A stretch of 64,000 bases of DNA from Escherichia phage vB_EcoM_R5505: sequence record MK373786.1, one strand, 5' to 3'. Shown here in pieces: positions 2,125-40,443 of this stretch. The notes beneath the pieces were generated by a model that saw only the letters and a list, made by a program, of their open reading frames with translations, did no database searches and was not told the DNA's origin. The position numbers were made by a program, and so were the translations under genes. Position 1 is the first letter of the stretch. Every line of letters begins with the position of its first letter.

Positions 2125-2143
2125 GGGACCTTCGGGTCCCTTT
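2125..2143 (+). terminator. Intrinsic terminator hairpin after gene 23
   Basis: gggacc-ttcg-ggtccc stem-loop followed by T-run. Confidence 0.8.
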
Positions 2144-2157
2144 AGTTGTTTTTATGG

Positions 2158-2165
2158 TATAAATA
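2158..2165 (+). promoter_or_regulatory. Late promoter (TATAAATA) for gene 24
   Basis: tataaata about 28 nt upstream of gene 24 ATG. Confidence 0.75.
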
Positions 2166-2192
2166 AATCATATAAACCAAAAGGAAAGCGCA

Positions 2193-3476
2193 ATGGCTAA
2201 AATCAACGAACTTCTGCGCGAATCAACCACAACGAATAGCAACTCAATCGGTCGCCCAAATCTCGTTGCTTTGACTCGCGCTACCACTAAATTAATATAT
2301 TCTGACATTGTAGCAACGCAAAGAACTAATCAACCTGTTGCTGCTTTTTATGGTATCAAATACCTTAACCCAGACAATGAATTTACATTTAAAACTGGTG
2401 CTACTTACGCTGGCGAAGCCGGATATGTAGACCGAGAACAAATCACAGAATTAACAGAAGAGTCTAAATTAACTCTCAATAAAGGCGATTTATTCAAATA
2501 TAATAATATCGTTTATAAAGTATTAGAAGATACACCATTTGCTGATATTGAAGAAAGCGACTTAGAGTTAGCTCTTCAGATTGCAATTGTTCTTTTAAAG
2601 GTTCGTCTATTTTCTGACGCAGCGTCAACAAGCAAATTTGAAAGCTCTGATAGTGAAATTGCGGATGCTAGATTCCAGATTAATAAATGGCAAACCGCAG
2701 TTAAATCTCGTAAACTTAAAACTGGTATCACAGTTGAATTAGCGCAAGATTTAGAAGCAAATGGATTCGATGCTCCTAATTTCTTGGAAGATTTGCTTGC
2801 AACTGAAATGGCAGATGAAATCAATAAAGATATTCTACAGTCTTTGATTACAGTGTCAAAACGCTATAAAGTTACAGGAATTACTGATAGTGGATTCATC
2901 GATTTGAGTTATGCATCTGCTCCTGAAGCTGGTCGTTCATTATACCGAATGGTATGTGAAATGGTTTCGCATATCCAAAAAGAATCAACTTATACAGCAA
3001 CATTCTGTGTTGCTTCTGCTCGTGCTGCTGCGATTCTTGCTGCATCAGGTTGGTTAAAACATAAACCAGAAGATGATAAATATCTTTCACAAAATGCCTA
3101 TGGGTTTTTAGCTAATGGTTTACCACTTTATTGCGATACTAACAGCCCATTAGATTATGTAATCGTTGGCGTAGTAGAAAATATCGGTGAAAAAGAAATT
3201 GTTGGATCAATTTTCTATGCTCCGTATACAGAAGGTCTCGACTTAGATGACCCTGAACATGTAGGTGCATTTAAAGTTGTAGTTGATCCAGAAAGTTTGC
3301 AGCCATCTATCGGTTTATTAGTTAGATATGCTTTATCAGCAAATCCTTACACCGTAGCAAAAGATGAAAAAGAAGCAAGAGTAATTGATGGTGGAGACAT
3401 GGATAAAATGGCGGGTCGTTCAGATTTGTCTGTTTTATTAGGTGTTAAATTACCAAAAATTATTATTGATGAATAA
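2193..3476 (+). CDS. 24: Capsid vertex protein gp24 (gp23 paralog)
   Basis: 427-aa ORF directly after gene 23, shared motifs with gp23 (KLKTGITVELAQDLEA vs LKAAYSIELAQDLRA). Confidence 0.95.
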   Translation: MAKINELLRESTTTNSNSIGRPNLVALTRATTKLIYSDIVATQRTNQPVAAFYGIKYLNPDNEFTFKTGATYAGEAGYVDREQITELTEESKLTLNKGDLFKYNNIVYKVLEDTPFADIEESDLELALQIAIVLLKVRLFSDAASTSKFESSDSEIADARFQINKWQTAVKSRKLKTGITVELAQDLEANGFDAPNFLEDLLATEMADEINKDILQSLITVSKRYKVTGITDSGFIDLSYASAPEAGRSLYRMVCEMVSHIQKESTYTATFCVASARAAAILAASGWLKHKPEDDKYLSQNAYGFLANGLPLYCDTNSPLDYVIVGVVENIGEKEIVGSIFYAPYTEGLDLDDPEHVGAFKVVVDPESLQPSIGLLVRYALSANPYTVAKDEKEARVIDGGDMDKMAGRSDLSVLLGVKLPKIIIDE

Positions 3477-3505: not shown

Positions 3506-4510
3506 TTAACTTACCAATTCAATCCAAGCCGGACGAAGTACATCTTGTACCATTTTAACTAATTCCTTCTTAATCAAAGAAGGATTATCCGCTTGAGTTA
3601 GAGTAATACCTTCACGAGAAGTTTCTTCCAAAATATCTTGAACGGTTAGTCCCATCACCTTTCCAAAATCTTTAGGACCAATTTCGCCAATTTTAGAAAT
3701 AACGTTATTTACCCGGTTCAGTGTAACGTAACAAGCTAAAATCCCCACCAATTTGTTATCAGCTTCTGACAGTTCAACTTTAGCTTTAATAGGCTTATCA
3801 GACTTTTTCTTTTCACTAAATTTAGAATTCTTGCATTTGATGGCTACACGATTGCGATTAGGCAGCCAAGAAGGATAACAAGGTTTCAATACATATCCTT
3901 CAGCAGTAAATACTTCGCCTTTGGTTTCAGCTTTCCAAACACATTTGTTAGCGTCAATTAAACCTGCATTATCTACGGTAAAATTATAAGACGGAACAAC
4001 AGAATCCAAATCATTTGGAAGTTTAATAAGATCTTCAAATTTACCACGACCCAAAAGTGGAGCGATTTTAAACCCAAATGAATTACAAAACGATTCCATC
4101 ATGTAATCATCAACATAAGTTACATCACCACTTTCGGTAGTGACAATAATGTCAAATACATAAAAATCTTTATCGCCATAATCAACATTCTTCTGAATGC
4201 CAGGTCCAGCGAATTCGCCAAAAACTTGATAAGTCACAACAGCTGAAGTTTCCATAATTTCTTGTACTGCTTTAATGGAATCAGCGTAATTCTTTAAAAT
4301 AATTTCATACCCAAAGAAATCTTCAGCAGGAAGAATAGGACCAGTACGTTTAGCGCAAGTTACTTTATCACGCTCAATAATCAATGAGAAATTTGTGCCG
4401 TGAATCTTTTCACGAGCTACCCATTCGCCGCCAGTCAATCCCAAGCTATAAAGTTTTTCAATAAATTTAGAGTTGTAATGATTTTCAAGACTGCTATACT
4501 TTTTAAACAT
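3506..4510 (-). CDS. rnlB: RNA ligase 2
   Basis: 334-aa ORF with nucleotidyltransferase lysine motif (EKIHGTNF); position after gene 24 as in T4. Confidence 0.93.
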
Positions 4511-34324: not shown

Positions 34325-35503
34325 TTAAAAATATTTTTTAAAACTCATCATAACTTTATCATCAACATCATTATCAATCTGTGCAACAAGATAAGATGAC
34401 AGTTCTACTTCTTGTGGCGCGGATTGAACATTATCAGAATTAAGATATTCACGAATCCAAGGATATGGGTGTTTAACCGGAGCATCGGTAATTGGGCATG
34501 GAAGACCACACTGTTTCATACGAGATACAGTTAAGTAATCAATAAAGCTCCACATGCTATTTGTATTTAATCCAGGAACATCGCCATCTTTAAATAAATG
34601 AACTGCCCAATCTTTTTCTTGGCGGTTAACTTCCATGAAAATATCAACTGCTTCTTGTTCACACTCTTGAGCAATTTTAACCCATTCATCGCCATCAGTG
34701 CCAAGTTGAAGTTGACGAATAATATATTGGGTGCCTTTAAGGTGAAGCTGCTCATCACGTGCAATGAACTTCATAATCTTGGCATTACCTTCCATGATTT
34801 CCATGTTCTTATGGAAGTTAAAGGTACACGCGAAAGATACATAAAAACGAATAGCTTCTAAGGCATTAATAACGTGCAAACAGAGGTAAAGAGATTTCAT
34901 TAGCTCACGCTTCCAATATGTCTCATGCTCAATAGCATCTTCAATAACGTCTTCGTCTGCATTAATTTCTTTTTGGTATTCGATATCAGCTTTAGCGTTT
35001 TCCCAATAACGAGTTTTAATCAGAACATCATCATAATAACGTCCAATGGATTCAGCACGTTTCATAATAGCTTCATCTAATACAATTTCATCAAATACCT
35101 TCGATGGATCAGTATAAAGATTTCGCATGATATGTGTATATGAACGGCTGTGAATAGTTTCACTAAAAGTCCATGTAGCAACCCATGTATCAAGGCTTGG
35201 GTCTGAAATTAATGACATAAGTACAGCAGACGGTGCACGACCCTGAATGCTATCCAAAAGTGATTGATACTTCAGGTTATTAGTAAAAATATTTTGCTGA
35301 TACTGAGGAAGCTTATTAAACTGTGCAGCATCCATCATTAAGTTTACTTCTTCAGGACGCCAGAAAAATGATAATTGCTTTTCGGTCAAATCTTCAAAAA
35401 CTTTATGGCGTTGAATATCATAACGCGCAATACCAAGACCTGAACCAAAAAACATAGGTTCTTTTAAAACATCAACTGGATTTGTATTAAAAACTGTGCT
35501 CAT
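34325..35503 (-). CDS. nrdB: Ribonucleotide reductase small subunit, uninterrupted
   Basis: 392-aa continuous ORF with di-iron ligand regions; no intron. Confidence 0.95.
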   Translation of the reverse strand: MSTVFNTNPVDVLKEPMFFGSGLGIARYDIQRHKVFEDLTEKQLSFFWRPEEVNLMMDAAQFNKLPQYQQNIFTNNLKYQSLLDSIQGRAPSAVLMSLISDPSLDTWVATWTFSETIHSRSYTHIMRNLYTDPSKVFDEIVLDEAIMKRAESIGRYYDDVLIKTRYWENAKADIEYQKEINADEDVIEDAIEHETYWKRELMKSLYLCLHVINALEAIRFYVSFACTFNFHKNMEIMEGNAKIMKFIARDEQLHLKGTQYIIRQLQLGTDGDEWVKIAQECEQEAVDIFMEVNRQEKDWAVHLFKDGDVPGLNTNSMWSFIDYLTVSRMKQCGLPCPITDAPVKHPYPWIREYLNSDNVQSAPQEVELSSYLVAQIDNDVDDKVMMSFKKYF

Positions 35504-35554
35504 AAATTTTCCACTTAGTTAATAGATAGTGACTCGTCCATGAGTCAAATTATA

Positions 35555-37819
35555 TCATAATTTACAGGATGAACAATCTTCAGCTTTTGGAGTTTCTATT
35601 TCATAATCATCAGTACCAGAACCATCACGGGTATTATGATAATAGAAATTTTTTCCGCCAAAATACCAGAAATACAAAAGGTCATCAATCATTATTGACA
35701 TTGGAACCTTGCCTTTAGGGAAGATTTGGGGGTCATAGTATGTATTCGCTGAAGCTGATTGACAAACCCATTTCAGCATAATAGCTACCTGCGTAAGATA
35801 AGGTTTATTACCTTTCTTAGCTAATTTCCATGTATAATCATAGAGGTCTATGTTATGCTCAATATTGGGCACGACTTGATTAAAGGAGCCCTCTTTTGAT
35901 TCTTTAACAGAGACTGGTCCACGTGGAGGCTCGATACCGTTTGTACTGTTAGAAACTTGGGAAGATGACTCACATGGCATAAGTGCTGATAATGTGCTAT
36001 TACGGATGCCAAAGAGCTTAAGGTCTTCCCGCAGCGACGACCAGTCACAAACGTATTTTGGAGCTGCGATTTGGTCAATCTTTTTATTGTACCAGTCGAT
36101 AGGTAATTCGCCTCGAGACCAACGAGTGTCTGAATAATATTCGCAAGGTCCTTTTTCTTTGGCGAGCTTAATGGATGCTTTAATGAGTCCATACTGTAAT
36201 CTCTCAAATAGTTCATGTGTTAAATCGTTAGCATCTTCATAAGAAGCAAAGTTACTTGCCAGCCAAGCTGCATAGTTGGTAACACCTACACCGAGGTTAC
36301 GACGCTTTTTAGCTTTTTCTGCTTCAGGAACTGGATATCCTTGATAATCCAAAAGATTATCAAGAGCACGAACTTGAACTTCTGCCAATTCATTAATTTT
36401 ATCTTGGTCTTGCCAGTCAAAATTATCTAGTACGAATGCAGAGAGAGTACACAATCCAATTTCAGCATCAGGACTGTTCACATCATTTGTTGGAATAGCA
36501 ATTTCACAGCACAAGTTACTCTGACGAATAGGTGCCTTTTCACGAATAAACGGAGTATAGTTATTCGTATTATCAATGAACTGCACATAAATCCTTGCTG
36601 TTCCTGAACGTTCAGTCATGAGCAATTCAAATAGTTCACGAGCTTTAATACGCTTTTTGCGAATATTAGGGTCTTTTTCTGCTGCTTCGTATAATTCACG
36701 GAAACGGTCTTGGTCTTTAAAATAAGAATAATAAAGCTCGCCACCCATTTCATGCGGGCTGAACAAAGTAATGTAATCATTCTTTCCGAATCGTTCCATC
36801 ATCAAATCATTCAGCTGAACACCATAATCCATATGACGAATGCGGTTTTCTTCTACGCCTTTGTTATTTTTCAAAACGAGAAGATTTTCAACTTCCAAAT
36901 GCCAAATAGGATAATAAGCAGTAGCAGCGCCGCCACGAATTCCACCCTGTGAACATGATTTAACAGCAGTCTGAAAATGTTTCCAAAAAGGAATAACACC
37001 GGTATGGCGTACTTCACCCATGCCAATCTTAGAACCTTCGGCACGAATCATACCAACGTTAATACCAATTCCAGCGCGTTTAGAGATATATTCAACAATT
37101 GAAGCAGAAGCCTTATTGATAGACTTCAGCGAATCACCTGCCTCAATAACAACACATGAACTAAACTGTCGAGTCGGAGTACGGCAACCAGCCATAATAG
37201 GAGTTGGCAATGAAATCTGTCGAGTAGATACTGCTTCATAAAAACGGATAACATGTTTTAGTCTATCAACAGGTTCATCTTGATGCAATGCCATTCCAAT
37301 AGCCATAAATGCAAACTGCGGAGTTTCATAAATTTGACCAGTGGTTTTATCTTTAACTAGATATTTTTCTTTTAATTGCATCGCCCCGGAATAAGTAAAT
37401 TCCATATCCCGCTCGTGCTTAATTTTTGATTCTAAAAATGTAATTTCTTCTGCTGAATATTTTGACAATAATTCAGGGTCATATTTACCTGCATTTACAC
37501 AATAAGAAATATGGTCAATAAATGAACGTGGTTCATACTGCCCATAAACATGCTTACGAAGAGCAAACATTAAACAGCGTGCAGCTACATATTGATAATC
37601 AGGCTCTTCAACCGAAATAGAATTCGCAGCAGCCTTAATGACAATAGTCTGAATATCATCAGTTGTCATTCCATCACGGAGATAAGATTTAATGTTTTCA
37701 TATAATTCATAAGGATCTACTGATGTTCCTTCAGCTGCCCAAGATAAAACTTTAATAATTTTTTGCGGGTCAAAGCTCTGAGAAACACCACTACTTTTGA
37801 TAACATTAATTAATTGCAT
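35555..37819 (-). CDS. nrdA: Ribonucleotide reductase large subunit
   Basis: 754-aa ORF, class Ia RNR; C-terminal CSSCKL. Confidence 0.97.
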   Translation of the reverse strand: MQLINVIKSSGVSQSFDPQKIIKVLSWAAEGTSVDPYELYENIKSYLRDGMTTDDIQTIVIKAAANSISVEEPDYQYVAARCLMFALRKHVYGQYEPRSFIDHISYCVNAGKYDPELLSKYSAEEITFLESKIKHERDMEFTYSGAMQLKEKYLVKDKTTGQIYETPQFAFMAIGMALHQDEPVDRLKHVIRFYEAVSTRQISLPTPIMAGCRTPTRQFSSCVVIEAGDSLKSINKASASIVEYISKRAGIGINVGMIRAEGSKIGMGEVRHTGVIPFWKHFQTAVKSCSQGGIRGGAATAYYPIWHLEVENLLVLKNNKGVEENRIRHMDYGVQLNDLMMERFGKNDYITLFSPHEMGGELYYSYFKDQDRFRELYEAAEKDPNIRKKRIKARELFELLMTERSGTARIYVQFIDNTNNYTPFIREKAPIRQSNLCCEIAIPTNDVNSPDAEIGLCTLSAFVLDNFDWQDQDKINELAEVQVRALDNLLDYQGYPVPEAEKAKKRRNLGVGVTNYAAWLASNFASYEDANDLTHELFERLQYGLIKASIKLAKEKGPCEYYSDTRWSRGELPIDWYNKKIDQIAAPKYVCDWSSLREDLKLFGIRNSTLSALMPCESSSQVSNSTNGIEPPRGPVSVKESKEGSFNQVVPNIEHNIDLYDYTWKLAKKGNKPYLTQVAIMLKWVCQSASANTYYDPQIFPKGKVPMSIMIDDLLYFWYFGGKNFYYHNTRDGSGTDDYEIETPKAEDCSSCKL

Positions 37820-38136
37820 AAGTCCTCAACTTGAAAATCGTCTTTAAACAATCGGTTAACTATATGAGCTATTATATCACCATGACACGGCTTTGGTTTA
37901 CATGTGCATCCTAGCCTCATTCCACGTAAAGGCTCTAAATGTGCTTTAGTTATTTCTCCGGATTTAATTCGACGTATAAAATCTTTTTTGAATAATTCAA
38001 TGGCAGCCTCCCGGCTGCCAGCATCTTTACCGACGTAATTTCCCCAAAATGTACCGCGGTGAATATTAACATCAAAGTCGGATTTGTATTTATTCACTAC
38101 CCGGCATAGACGGCCCACGCTGGAATAATTCGTCAT
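37810..38136 (-). CDS. Hypothetical protein (nrdA.1 position)
   Basis: 108-aa ORF with [11 protein letters not shown] cysteine cluster. Confidence 0.7.
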
Positions 38137-38353
38137 ATTGTTTTTCCGTTAAAACAGTAATATCGTAGTAACAGTCAGAAGAAGTTTTAACTGTGGAAAT
38201 TTTATTATCAAAATACTCACGAGTCATTTTATGAGTATAATATTTTTTACCATAAATGATAATAGGCTGTTCTGGTCCTGGAACTTCTAACTCGCTTGGG
38301 TTAGGAAGTGTAAAAAGAACAACGCCAGAAGTATCTTTAAATCGTAAAATCAT
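38090..38353 (-). CDS. Hypothetical protein (nrdA.2 position)
   Basis: 87-aa ORF. Confidence 0.65.
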
Positions 38354-39210
38354 ATTGCCATTTTCCCTTTAATTGCTGGATGCGATTCATAATTTTCAAG
38401 GATAAAATCTTTCGGTTTCATGTATTCAGTTAACCAGTAAAGCTGTGTTTCGGTGTCACAATTTCCAAACTCTATAGGCCAATCAATTTTAAGTTCACAC
38501 AGTTCTTTAGGCTCACGACGTAAAATTTCTTTACATTGCTCAGTATGATTCATATAGATGTGAGTATTACCACCAGAAAATATCAAATCTCCTGGGATAA
38601 GATTACACATCTTAGCCACAATATGCGTCAAGGCAGCGTACGAGGCAATGTTGAATGGCAAGCCCAAGAAAACATCTACACTTCTTTGGTACCATTGTAA
38701 ATCAAGATAACCATTACGCACATTAAACTGATAGAACATATGACAGGGCGGTAATGCCATTTGATTGATTTCAGCTGGATTCCATGCTGAAACGATTTGA
38801 CGTCGATCAGTTGGTAATTTTTTAATACGATCAATAGTTTCAACTAATTGATCCACACCACCGAAATCACGCCATTGTTTACCGTATATAGGACCAAGTT
38901 CACCACTATGATATCCTAGGTCTTTAGCCTGGTTTTCATAGTTATCGTCCCAAATAGTTTTACCTTGAATAAGACTACCATGAGTGCGAAGACGTAAATC
39001 ATTAACATTGGTAGAACCGGAAATAAACCATAGAAGCTCAGCAATGCATGCATTCCAGGCGAGCTTCTTAGTTGTTACTGCAGGAAAACCTTTAGTTAAA
39101 TCCCAGCGTAATTTAGTACCGAACAAAGCAATTGTTCCTGTGCCTGTTCGGTCATCGGTTTCATAACCATTTTCAAAAATGTCTTTAATTAAATCTTGGT
39201 ATTGTTTCAT
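38350..39210 (-). CDS. td: Thymidylate synthase, uninterrupted
   Basis: 286-aa continuous ORF; catalytic motif PPCHMFYQF; no intron. Confidence 0.97.
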
Positions 39211-39254
39211 TTAGTACCTTATATAAATTATAATACATTTTATGAAGCTAATAA

Positions 39255-39602
39255 TTAATACGGTTTAGCATCAAATTTTCTCTCAATTTCAGGCGTGAAA
39301 TATAATTCTTTACCGCGTTTGGAAAAGCGACCAATAATATGATAATTATTCTCATCAAACGTGATATTACCAATATCCATAGCTTTCAACCAAATATCGA
39401 TATTTCTATCCAGCTTTATGTCAAAATTCCAATACGGAGAACTATTACCGAAAATACTGCAAGCGGATTCAGTGAAACAACTGCTATAAATCTTGTCTTT
39501 AGGAACTACTAATTGATAGACACCTTTAATAAACTGAGGACCCTGCCACTTTGGCTGTTTCGCGTCTTTTTCTAATAGAATAGGGTAATAATTAAAATTC
39601 AT
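39255..39602 (-). CDS. Hypothetical accessory protein inserted between frd and td
   Basis: 115 aa from the ATG at 39602 (track start at 39614 is GTG); no recognisable motifs. Confidence 0.6.
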   Translation of the reverse strand: MNFNYYPILLEKDAKQPKWQGPQFIKGVYQLVVPKDKIYSSCFTESACSIFGNSSPYWNFDIKLDRNIDIWLKAMDIGNITFDENNYHIIGRFSKRGKELYFTPEIERKFDAKPY

Positions 39603-39622
39603 ATTTTCCGCCACGCGTTATT

Positions 39623-40443
<821 letters not shown>

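Follow-up and report, generated by a model that had tools for sequence, protein, structure and literature searches.

Why are the genes for dihydrofolate reductase (frd) and thymidylate synthase (td) separated by a further open reading frame in Escherichia phage vB_EcoM_R5505, when in T4 they overlap? A preliminary description of this locus had read the ORF as an accessory insertion in an otherwise conserved operon. Here we ask whether it is a real gene, which state of the junction is the older one and what the product may do. The window analysed is a stretch of 64,000 nucleotides of this phage (MK373786.1), and all features of the locus lie on its minus strand. They comprise frd at 39623-40204 (193 aa; Pfam DHFR_1, E 3.6e-19) and td at 38350-39210 (286 aa; Pfam Thymidylat_synt, E 7e-96). 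The interval between them, 39211-39622, is exactly 412 bp and holds one long ORF of 115 aa (39255-39602; ATG at 39602-39600, stop codon TAA at 39257-39255), whose product begins MNFNYYPILLEKDAKQPKWQGPQF and which we call ORF-A, or A. The preliminary description, with about 410 bp and a 115-aa ORF, was therefore right in both position and length. An alternative GTG start at 39614 would give 119 aa; homologues begin at the ATG instead. Between frd and ORF-A lies a 20-nt spacer (39603-39622) with a weak Shine-Dalgarno-like GGCGGA at 39607-39612. A spacer of 44 nt (39211-39254) separates ORF-A from td. In the T4 reference (NC_000866) frd extends to 145109 and td begins at 145112, the two codons overlapping as ATGA; the T4 junction is thus empty, and the preliminary description was right that frd and td abut or overlap there. 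The flanks are very similar, with 190 of 193 residues identical between the Frd proteins of the window and T4.

The surroundings of the locus also differ from T4. The window td is uninterrupted and has no group I intron, whereas T4 td has one. The nrdB gene (34325-35503, 392 aa) is likewise uninterrupted, and the gap between nrdB and nrdA, where mobE sits in T4, is only 51 nt (35504-35554), such that the T4 mobile elements of this region (td intron, I-TevI and mobE) are all missing from the window phage. Phages G8, FL23 and ECO4 carry both A and a td intron, and the ORF and the intron are therefore independent of each other. Two small genes between td and nrdA (37810-38136 and 38090-38353) are syntenic with T4 nrdA.1 and nrdA.2. 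Their products are 108 and 87 aa long as in T4, and they overlap by 47 nt, an overlap annotated identically in T4. In related loci the nrdA.1 counterparts carry a DUF4326 annotation.

With its dN/dS of 0.05, ORF-A is a genuine protein-coding gene under strong purifying selection. The allele of phage NHEP29, 94% identical, differs from it by 27 synonymous and 9 non-synonymous changes; the dN/dS of td for the same pair of phages is 0.07. Across 27 sequences, down to 19% identity, six residues are invariant (Q16, W19, G27, G91, K95 and G97), and the family is marked by the motifs QxxW, (H/K)G(I/V)Y, GN(I/V) and IGRFxKxG. The window protein has Q16, W19, G27, Y29, N79, G91, R92, F93, K95 and G97. 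It could be argued that ORF-A is a spurious frame in degenerate intergenic DNA, the region being AT-rich and the Shine-Dalgarno sequence ahead of the ORF weak, or that the interval is an RNA element. The substitution pattern effectively refutes the former, and protein-level conservation reaching 19-25% identity and a confidently predicted fold speak against it too. As to an RNA element, an Rfam scan of the interval gave no family (the best match, E 0.08, was a fly lncRNA on the other strand and is at chance level), and neither spacer contains a stable structure or hairpin, folding no better than shuffled sequence (z +0.4 and +1.1). We regard the probability of either reading as negligible.

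ORF-A belongs to phrog_1928 (hmmscan E 8.4e-36, residues 4-111 against profile positions 2-125 of 126). The preliminary description had found no recognisable family; this holds insofar as no named family exists, Pfam, NCBIfam and PADLOC being empty, and fails insofar as the PHROG profile is matched. Searching the 514 six-frame ORFs of the window with the family profile returned ORF-A alone (E 1e-42) and no second member. A 651-bp query centred on ORF-A matched 518 phage records, 354 of which cover at least 80% of the query. By tblastn against the phage collection, a protein at least 90% identical is found in 362 records and a homologue at 25-47% identity in a further 218, with one copy in each of the 580 records. 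The hypothetical protein of T2, RB14 and RB32 (RB32ORF229c; T2 AP018813 BBF63391.1) is the same gene, being 100% identical at the same position with the same spacers, and differs in nothing. Therefore, whilst the ORF is accessory in the sense that it is variable and absent from T4, it is not the unusual insertion it was first taken for, since some 354-362 records carry it.

ORF-A is thus already known, and is listed in databases as a hypothetical protein with no function assigned. Nearly all family members are named "hypothetical protein" in their source records. A few carry the labels "putative homing endonuclease", "putative dihydrofolate reductase" or "glucose-1-phosphate adenylyltransferase", which are annotation errors and can propagate. 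Neither the T2 RefSeq genome NC_054931.1 (138770-139075) nor the older T2 fragment AY310907.2 (3525-3869) annotates the ORF. Literature searches for an ORF between frd and td, for RB32ORF229c, for phrog_1928 and for the peptide found no mention, and it is absent from two T4 reviews or papers. When 1.84 billion representative proteins were searched exhaustively with a profile, only about 20 true clusters emerged, and a second profile search of proteins recovered 32. The members are nameless proteins of 95-148 aa without Pfam matches, on contigs of up to ~178 kb, the size of T4-like genomes. All are single-domain, and consequently fusion partners give no hint of function. Two long matches from the profile searches (P0021 and P0023) were rejected as repeat-protein artefacts. 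One 90%-identity cluster that contains the Jiaodavirus A protein (105 aa) also contains the dihydrofolate reductase of 199 aa encoded next to it, a protein of unrelated sequence; presumably this reflects a clustering artefact, possibly through fused gene calls.

The occupancy of the frd-td slot was read from annotated representatives of eight Tevenvirinae genera and one uncultured contig. In Tequatrovirus, Mosigvirus, Jiaodavirus, Kanagawavirus, Roskildevirus, Moonvirus, Kagamiyamavirus and Karamvirus, as well as on the uncultured contig, A sits between frd and td and shares their strand. The arrangement is frd-A-td in ValerieMcCarty04 (Jiaodavirus), with overlaps at both boundaries. It is frd-A-B-td in PEi26 (Kanagawavirus), Moon (Moonvirus), EcS1 (Kagamiyamavirus) and CC31 (Karamvirus), frd-B-A-td in Cronus (Roskildevirus) and frd-A-B-C-td on the uncultured 32-kb contig. 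Phage IME537 (Tequatrovirus) has frd-C-td, and in T4 and RB69 frd and td overlap and the slot is empty. In the phage collection, about 354-362 records have A at a Tequatrovirus-like junction, ~135 have C and 32, mostly T4 and its close relatives, have the empty T4-type junction. The window proteins share 28-44% (A), 46-55% (Frd) and 71-82% (Td) identity with those of other genera; by these values A is evolving somewhat faster than its neighbours, with a divergence broadly comparable to theirs.

B is paralogous to A (hhalign probability 99.4%, E 5e-21) and is represented by PEi26 ORF-252, Moon gp253, EcS1 ORF254, CC31p238 and Cronus AWD90399. The two have the slot and the motifs Q-x-x-W, HG-x-Y and G-R-F-x-K-x-G in common; B differs in length (113-148 aa) and in an insert of 16-20 residues (…PPTIxxYKrdP…) after QKKW. 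It is absent from the window and from the Tequatrovirus genomes examined. C is a different gene of 68-69 aa (MSNKLKVKDVP...) that overlaps both of its neighbours and occurs in Tequatrovirus and Dhakavirus (pSs-1, Sf21, JS98, fPS-65 and others); in our locus extracts it fills the frd-td slot at 1019-1225 in IME537 and 4670-4879 in L008. Homologues of C at ~43% identity are also present in the unrelated Phapecoctavirus myoviruses phAPEC8 and ESCO13. In EcS1 a free-standing I-TevI-like homing endonuclease gene lies on the opposite strand (locus 3506-4264) and overlaps the 3′ end of an intronless td. The td of CC31 (locus 2143-3189) is annotated as 348 aa, about 60 residues above other T4-like Td proteins, which could reflect a wrong start, an insertion or a fusion. 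With homologues in the frd-td slot of eight genera, the family has long been resident there. We are confident that family A is an orphan, restricted to T4-like phages, whose home is this slot, and equally so that the slot is a small variable cassette array holding A, its tandem paralogue B, the unrelated C, combinations of these, or nothing.

The sequence of the junctions indicates how the slot states may interconvert. A 9-bp direct repeat, TAAATGAAA, occurs at 39621-39629, across the frd stop codon, and again at 39205-39213, across the td start codon. The two lie 416 bp from each other; extended to TAAATGAAATAA, the left copy fits the right copy at 11 of 12 positions. The T4 junction equals that of the window minus one copy of TAAATGAAA and the intervening DNA, exactly 416 bp. 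Moreover, frd ends in TATAAATGA in the window, T4, RB69, IME537 and NHEP29 alike, and the ATG within it starts td in T4 and RB69, C in IME537 and A in NHEP29. In the window the same ATG opens a two-codon mini-ORF, ATG AAA TAA (39618-39626), that overlaps the frd stop (ATGA) and repeats the first two codons of td before a stop; td has CAA at that place. The mini-ORF either is left over from a td-type start or serves as a coupling relay. The 20-nt spacer between frd and A is absent in the Mosigvirus NHEP29, where the A ATG overlaps the frd stop, and RB69 and NHEP29 thus differ, within Mosigvirus, by the same kind of indel as T4 and the window. An A-rich stop/start motif (TAAATGA...) recurs at every gene boundary of the array. 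T4 deletions typically arise between short direct repeats. Recombination between the short boundary repeats would remove or swap whole genes and, because an identical stop/start motif lies at each boundary, would leave working junctions behind. We infer that excision of a whole gene is both likely and harmless at such a repeated motif, and the T4 frd/td overlap is most likely the product of a 416-bp deletion from a window-type arrangement.

The alleles flanking the slot bear on the direction of change. T4 frd is 97.1-97.4% identical at the nucleotide level to the frd of the window and of phage FriedrichMiescher, both of which carry A, and 94.5% and 93.5% identical to that of T2 and bov9_1, also carriers of A. 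The first 450 nt of T4 td are closest to T2 (95.8%), followed by IME537 (93.1%), which carries C. All A-type junctions in Tequatrovirus have their spacers in common. The empty slot of T4 therefore nests among occupied ones, which favours a deletion in the T4 line, and comparison of these alleles suggests that the empty junction of T4 probably arose in this way. The opposite course, close to what the preliminary description implied, is that the ORF was inserted into a T4-like abutting junction in an ancestor of T2-type phages, duplicating the target TAAATGAAACAA, and that the empty state is the older one in Tequatrovirus. The flanking repeats, with their agreement at 11 of 12 positions, would suit a target duplication, as would a left copy, ATG AAA TAA, that differs from the td start by a single C-to-T change. 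In Tequatrovirus the ORF is set off by spacers of its own, whereas other genera have overlapping starts and stops; the junction of RB69 is also abutting; and horizontal movement of A is real (see below). However, the shared context of gene starts explains 8 of the 9 repeat bases, and NHEP29 has TAAATGAA at both boundaries. Given the identical spacers at every A-type junction in Tequatrovirus, a single insertion would have to predate those alleles; the T4 frd allele nests inside the A-carrying ones and the 5′ end of T4 td is nearest to that of the A-carrying T2. Empty junctions are also few, with 32 records against ~490 occupied. We thus consider insertion unlikely. Occupancy in eight genera marks the family as an old resident rather than a newcomer to a conserved operon, and deletion in the T4 line is the reading we retain.

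Movement in the other direction also takes place in this slot, A having been gained by recombination in, for example, Mosigvirus NHEP29 and PHB12. In NHEP29, Frd and Td are of RB69 type (97-98% identical), and relative to the window A is 89% and frd only 64% identical at the nucleotide level. For the same comparison the dS of A (0.63) is lower than that of td (1.06). PHB12 carries the A allele of NHEP29 (99% nucleotide identity) behind a Tequatrovirus-type frd (86% to the window) and the 20-nt spacer of Tequatrovirus, and the two phages show an apparent recombination breakpoint exactly at the frd/A boundary. We also considered the layout of NHEP29, with the A start on the frd stop, as the ancestral state of Tequatrovirus. 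This was rejected: NHEP29 belongs to Mosigvirus and its frd is of RB69 type, and its A allele recurs in PHB12 downstream of a frd and a spacer of Tequatrovirus type. Nor was there support for the cassette having swept recently through Tequatrovirus, A and frd being 96% and 94.7% identical at the nucleotide level between the window and T2.

The preliminary description had also pointed to a TATAAT-like element and a Shine-Dalgarno sequence facing td, and both are present in the 44-nt spacer (TATAAT at 39227-39232, AAGG at 39217-39220). The TATAAT ends just 16 nt ahead of the td ATG, and a transcript starting ~7 nt past the hexamer would give td a leader of only ~10 nt. A sigma-70 scan called no promoter at this hexamer, and no -35 element; on the minus strand, neither spacer yielded a sigma-70 promoter or a terminator-like hairpin. 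Ten nucleotides upstream of the hexamer lies GCTTCA (39243-39248), which resembles part of a MotA box. PeSL cassettes, the promoter-bearing mobile cassettes of T4-type phages, have an early promoter and a border stem-loop, and the frd-td spacers show neither. A late-promoter-like sequence overlaps the end of frd. The consensus of T4 late promoters is TATAAATA, and the last frd codons contain TATAAATG (39624-39631), a 7/8 match. TATAAATG is kept in every slot variant (T4, RB69, IME537 and NHEP29), whichever gene comes next, and might drive late transcription of the downstream gene.

Lastly, we turned to the protein. Neither A nor B nor any of 23 members gave a match in Pfam, NCBIfam or PADLOC, and sequence and profile searches of the PDB gave only chance-level matches (TagH, E 0.04; dynein; SspB, E 1.5). 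AlphaFold2, run with a 23-sequence alignment, predicted a fold with a pLDDT of 92 and a pTM of 0.84, all five models lying at 91-92. The predicted strands comprise residues 6-12, 27-34, 86-96 and 99-104 together with short strands at 38-40, 48-50, 62-64 and 80-82, with a helix at 68-76. In the model this order of elements is that of the OB fold, a small OB-like β-barrel. It fits five strands with a helix between the third and the fourth, the third being formed by residues 48-50 and 62-64. No significant structural similarity to solved folds, OB folds included, was found for the predicted model. About half of the weak structural matches are OB folds (HIN, Teb1, S1/RNase E, Rrp40, RPA, SSB, Stn1-Ten1, RecO and CusF/SilF), and matches in BFVD were to uncharacterised proteins of T4-like phages only. 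The family is mildly basic (pI ~7-9). Its conserved side chains are aromatic or basic (W19, Y29, F93, R92 and K95) together with Q16 and N79, and no conserved pattern of Cys or His was found. Judging from the model, the product is very likely a soluble, mildly basic protein of ~13 kDa with a predicted OB-like β-barrel and no catalytic motif.

Such a protein would be translated from the frd-td message during the prereplicative period and, in the other genera, would be translationally coupled to both neighbours. It is dispensable for the catalysis of Frd and Td, because T4, whose Frd is nearly identical, works without it. Most likely A is not an enzyme but a binding protein, produced alongside Frd and Td. 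Our preferred but tentative guess is that the ligand could be single-stranded nucleic acid or a nucleotide-like molecule, contacted in the predicted structure through the conserved residues Q16, W19, Y29, R92, F93 and K95. A role as an adaptor within the dNTP-synthesis machinery is doubtful. Its most specific form, in which A and B would tether Frd to Td or to the dNTP-synthetase/replication complex and T4 and RB69 would have lost the tether, seems more doubtful still. A putative physical association with Frd, Td, gp42, NrdAB or gp32 would draw on co-location and on the overlapping stop and start codons in other genera.

Two quite different functions have to be weighed against a non-enzymatic binding protein made with Frd and Td. 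The label "putative homing endonuclease" given to the family in FriedrichMiescher, AlbertHofmann and ValerieMcCarty04 suggests a free-standing homing gene or its remnant, and the presence/absence polymorphism with short flanking repeats, in a region that is rich in homing elements in T4 (I-TevI and mobE), would fit. Like A, the free-standing homing endonucleases of T-even phages (seg, mob and hef) are optional between conserved genes and differ between T2 and T4. However, A has no nuclease domain: no GIY-YIG, HNH, LAGLIDADG or other nuclease match was found for the 23 members in Pfam, NCBIfam or PHROG at E up to 1. In the model A folds as a small β-barrel, which has no fold matches to nucleases and is unrelated to the folds of seg, mob and hef. 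At about half their size, A has 115 aa against ~245 aa for T4 I-TevI and ~250 aa for the I-TevI-like gene of EcS1. No His or Cys/metal motif figures among its invariant residues (Q, W, K and three G). It also keeps to a fixed locus across genera, each of the 580 records having a single copy, which lies in the frd-td slot wherever its position was checked, and its exchange between genera is explicable by ordinary recombination. A homing origin is therefore highly improbable.

It is a good deal easier to envisage A as a factor in host takeover or anti-defence, one that binds a host protein and lies beside frd and td through a historical accident of the early-gene region. Many small T4 early proteins are factors of this type, and A is small, dispensable, patchy within genera and encoded in the early region. 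Its tandem duplication into A and B, its faster divergence relative to Frd and Td and its horizontal exchange would be in keeping with such a role. Against this, the anti-defence and defence-related models of PADLOC give no match, selection is strongly purifying and not diversifying, and the slot has been kept across eight genera with stop and start codons that overlap frd and td. We regard a host-directed role as possible, at rather less than even chances.

Taken together, A is an accessory, slot-resident gene, and we consider it probable that T4 has come to its present state by deletion and that the product is an OB-like binding module. As a sequence feature A is ordinary, as the identical gene is found in hundreds of T-even genomes; it seems unusual since the textbook phage, T4, is the exception, and the frd/td overlap of T4 would be a derived, minority state. 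The locus illustrates how packed phage operons may lose or swap whole genes by recombination at a stop/start motif that is repeated at the gene boundaries. It also places in the operon for dTMP synthesis a family that is confined to phages, is under strong selection and has a fold that is predicted with confidence but has no match. T2 with the gene and T4 without it, between near-identical flanks, form a clean natural pair and make A a cheap and well-defined target for functional work.

Among known systems, the OB-fold nucleic-acid binders (S1/cold-shock, RPA/SSB, HIN and Teb1) resemble the predicted A protein in size, in the order of strands and helix and in the conserved aromatic and basic residues. 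By analogy only, the locus also recalls the bifunctional DHFR-TS of protozoa and plants, in which the domain order is DHFR, linker, TS; the phage order of DHFR, small element and TS parallels it. Were A and B adaptors after all, they would be a non-covalent counterpart of protozoan DHFR-TS, built on a β-barrel without a solved relative. Unlike the fusion enzyme, the phage makes frd, A and td as three separate proteins, and T4 and RB69 manage without A.
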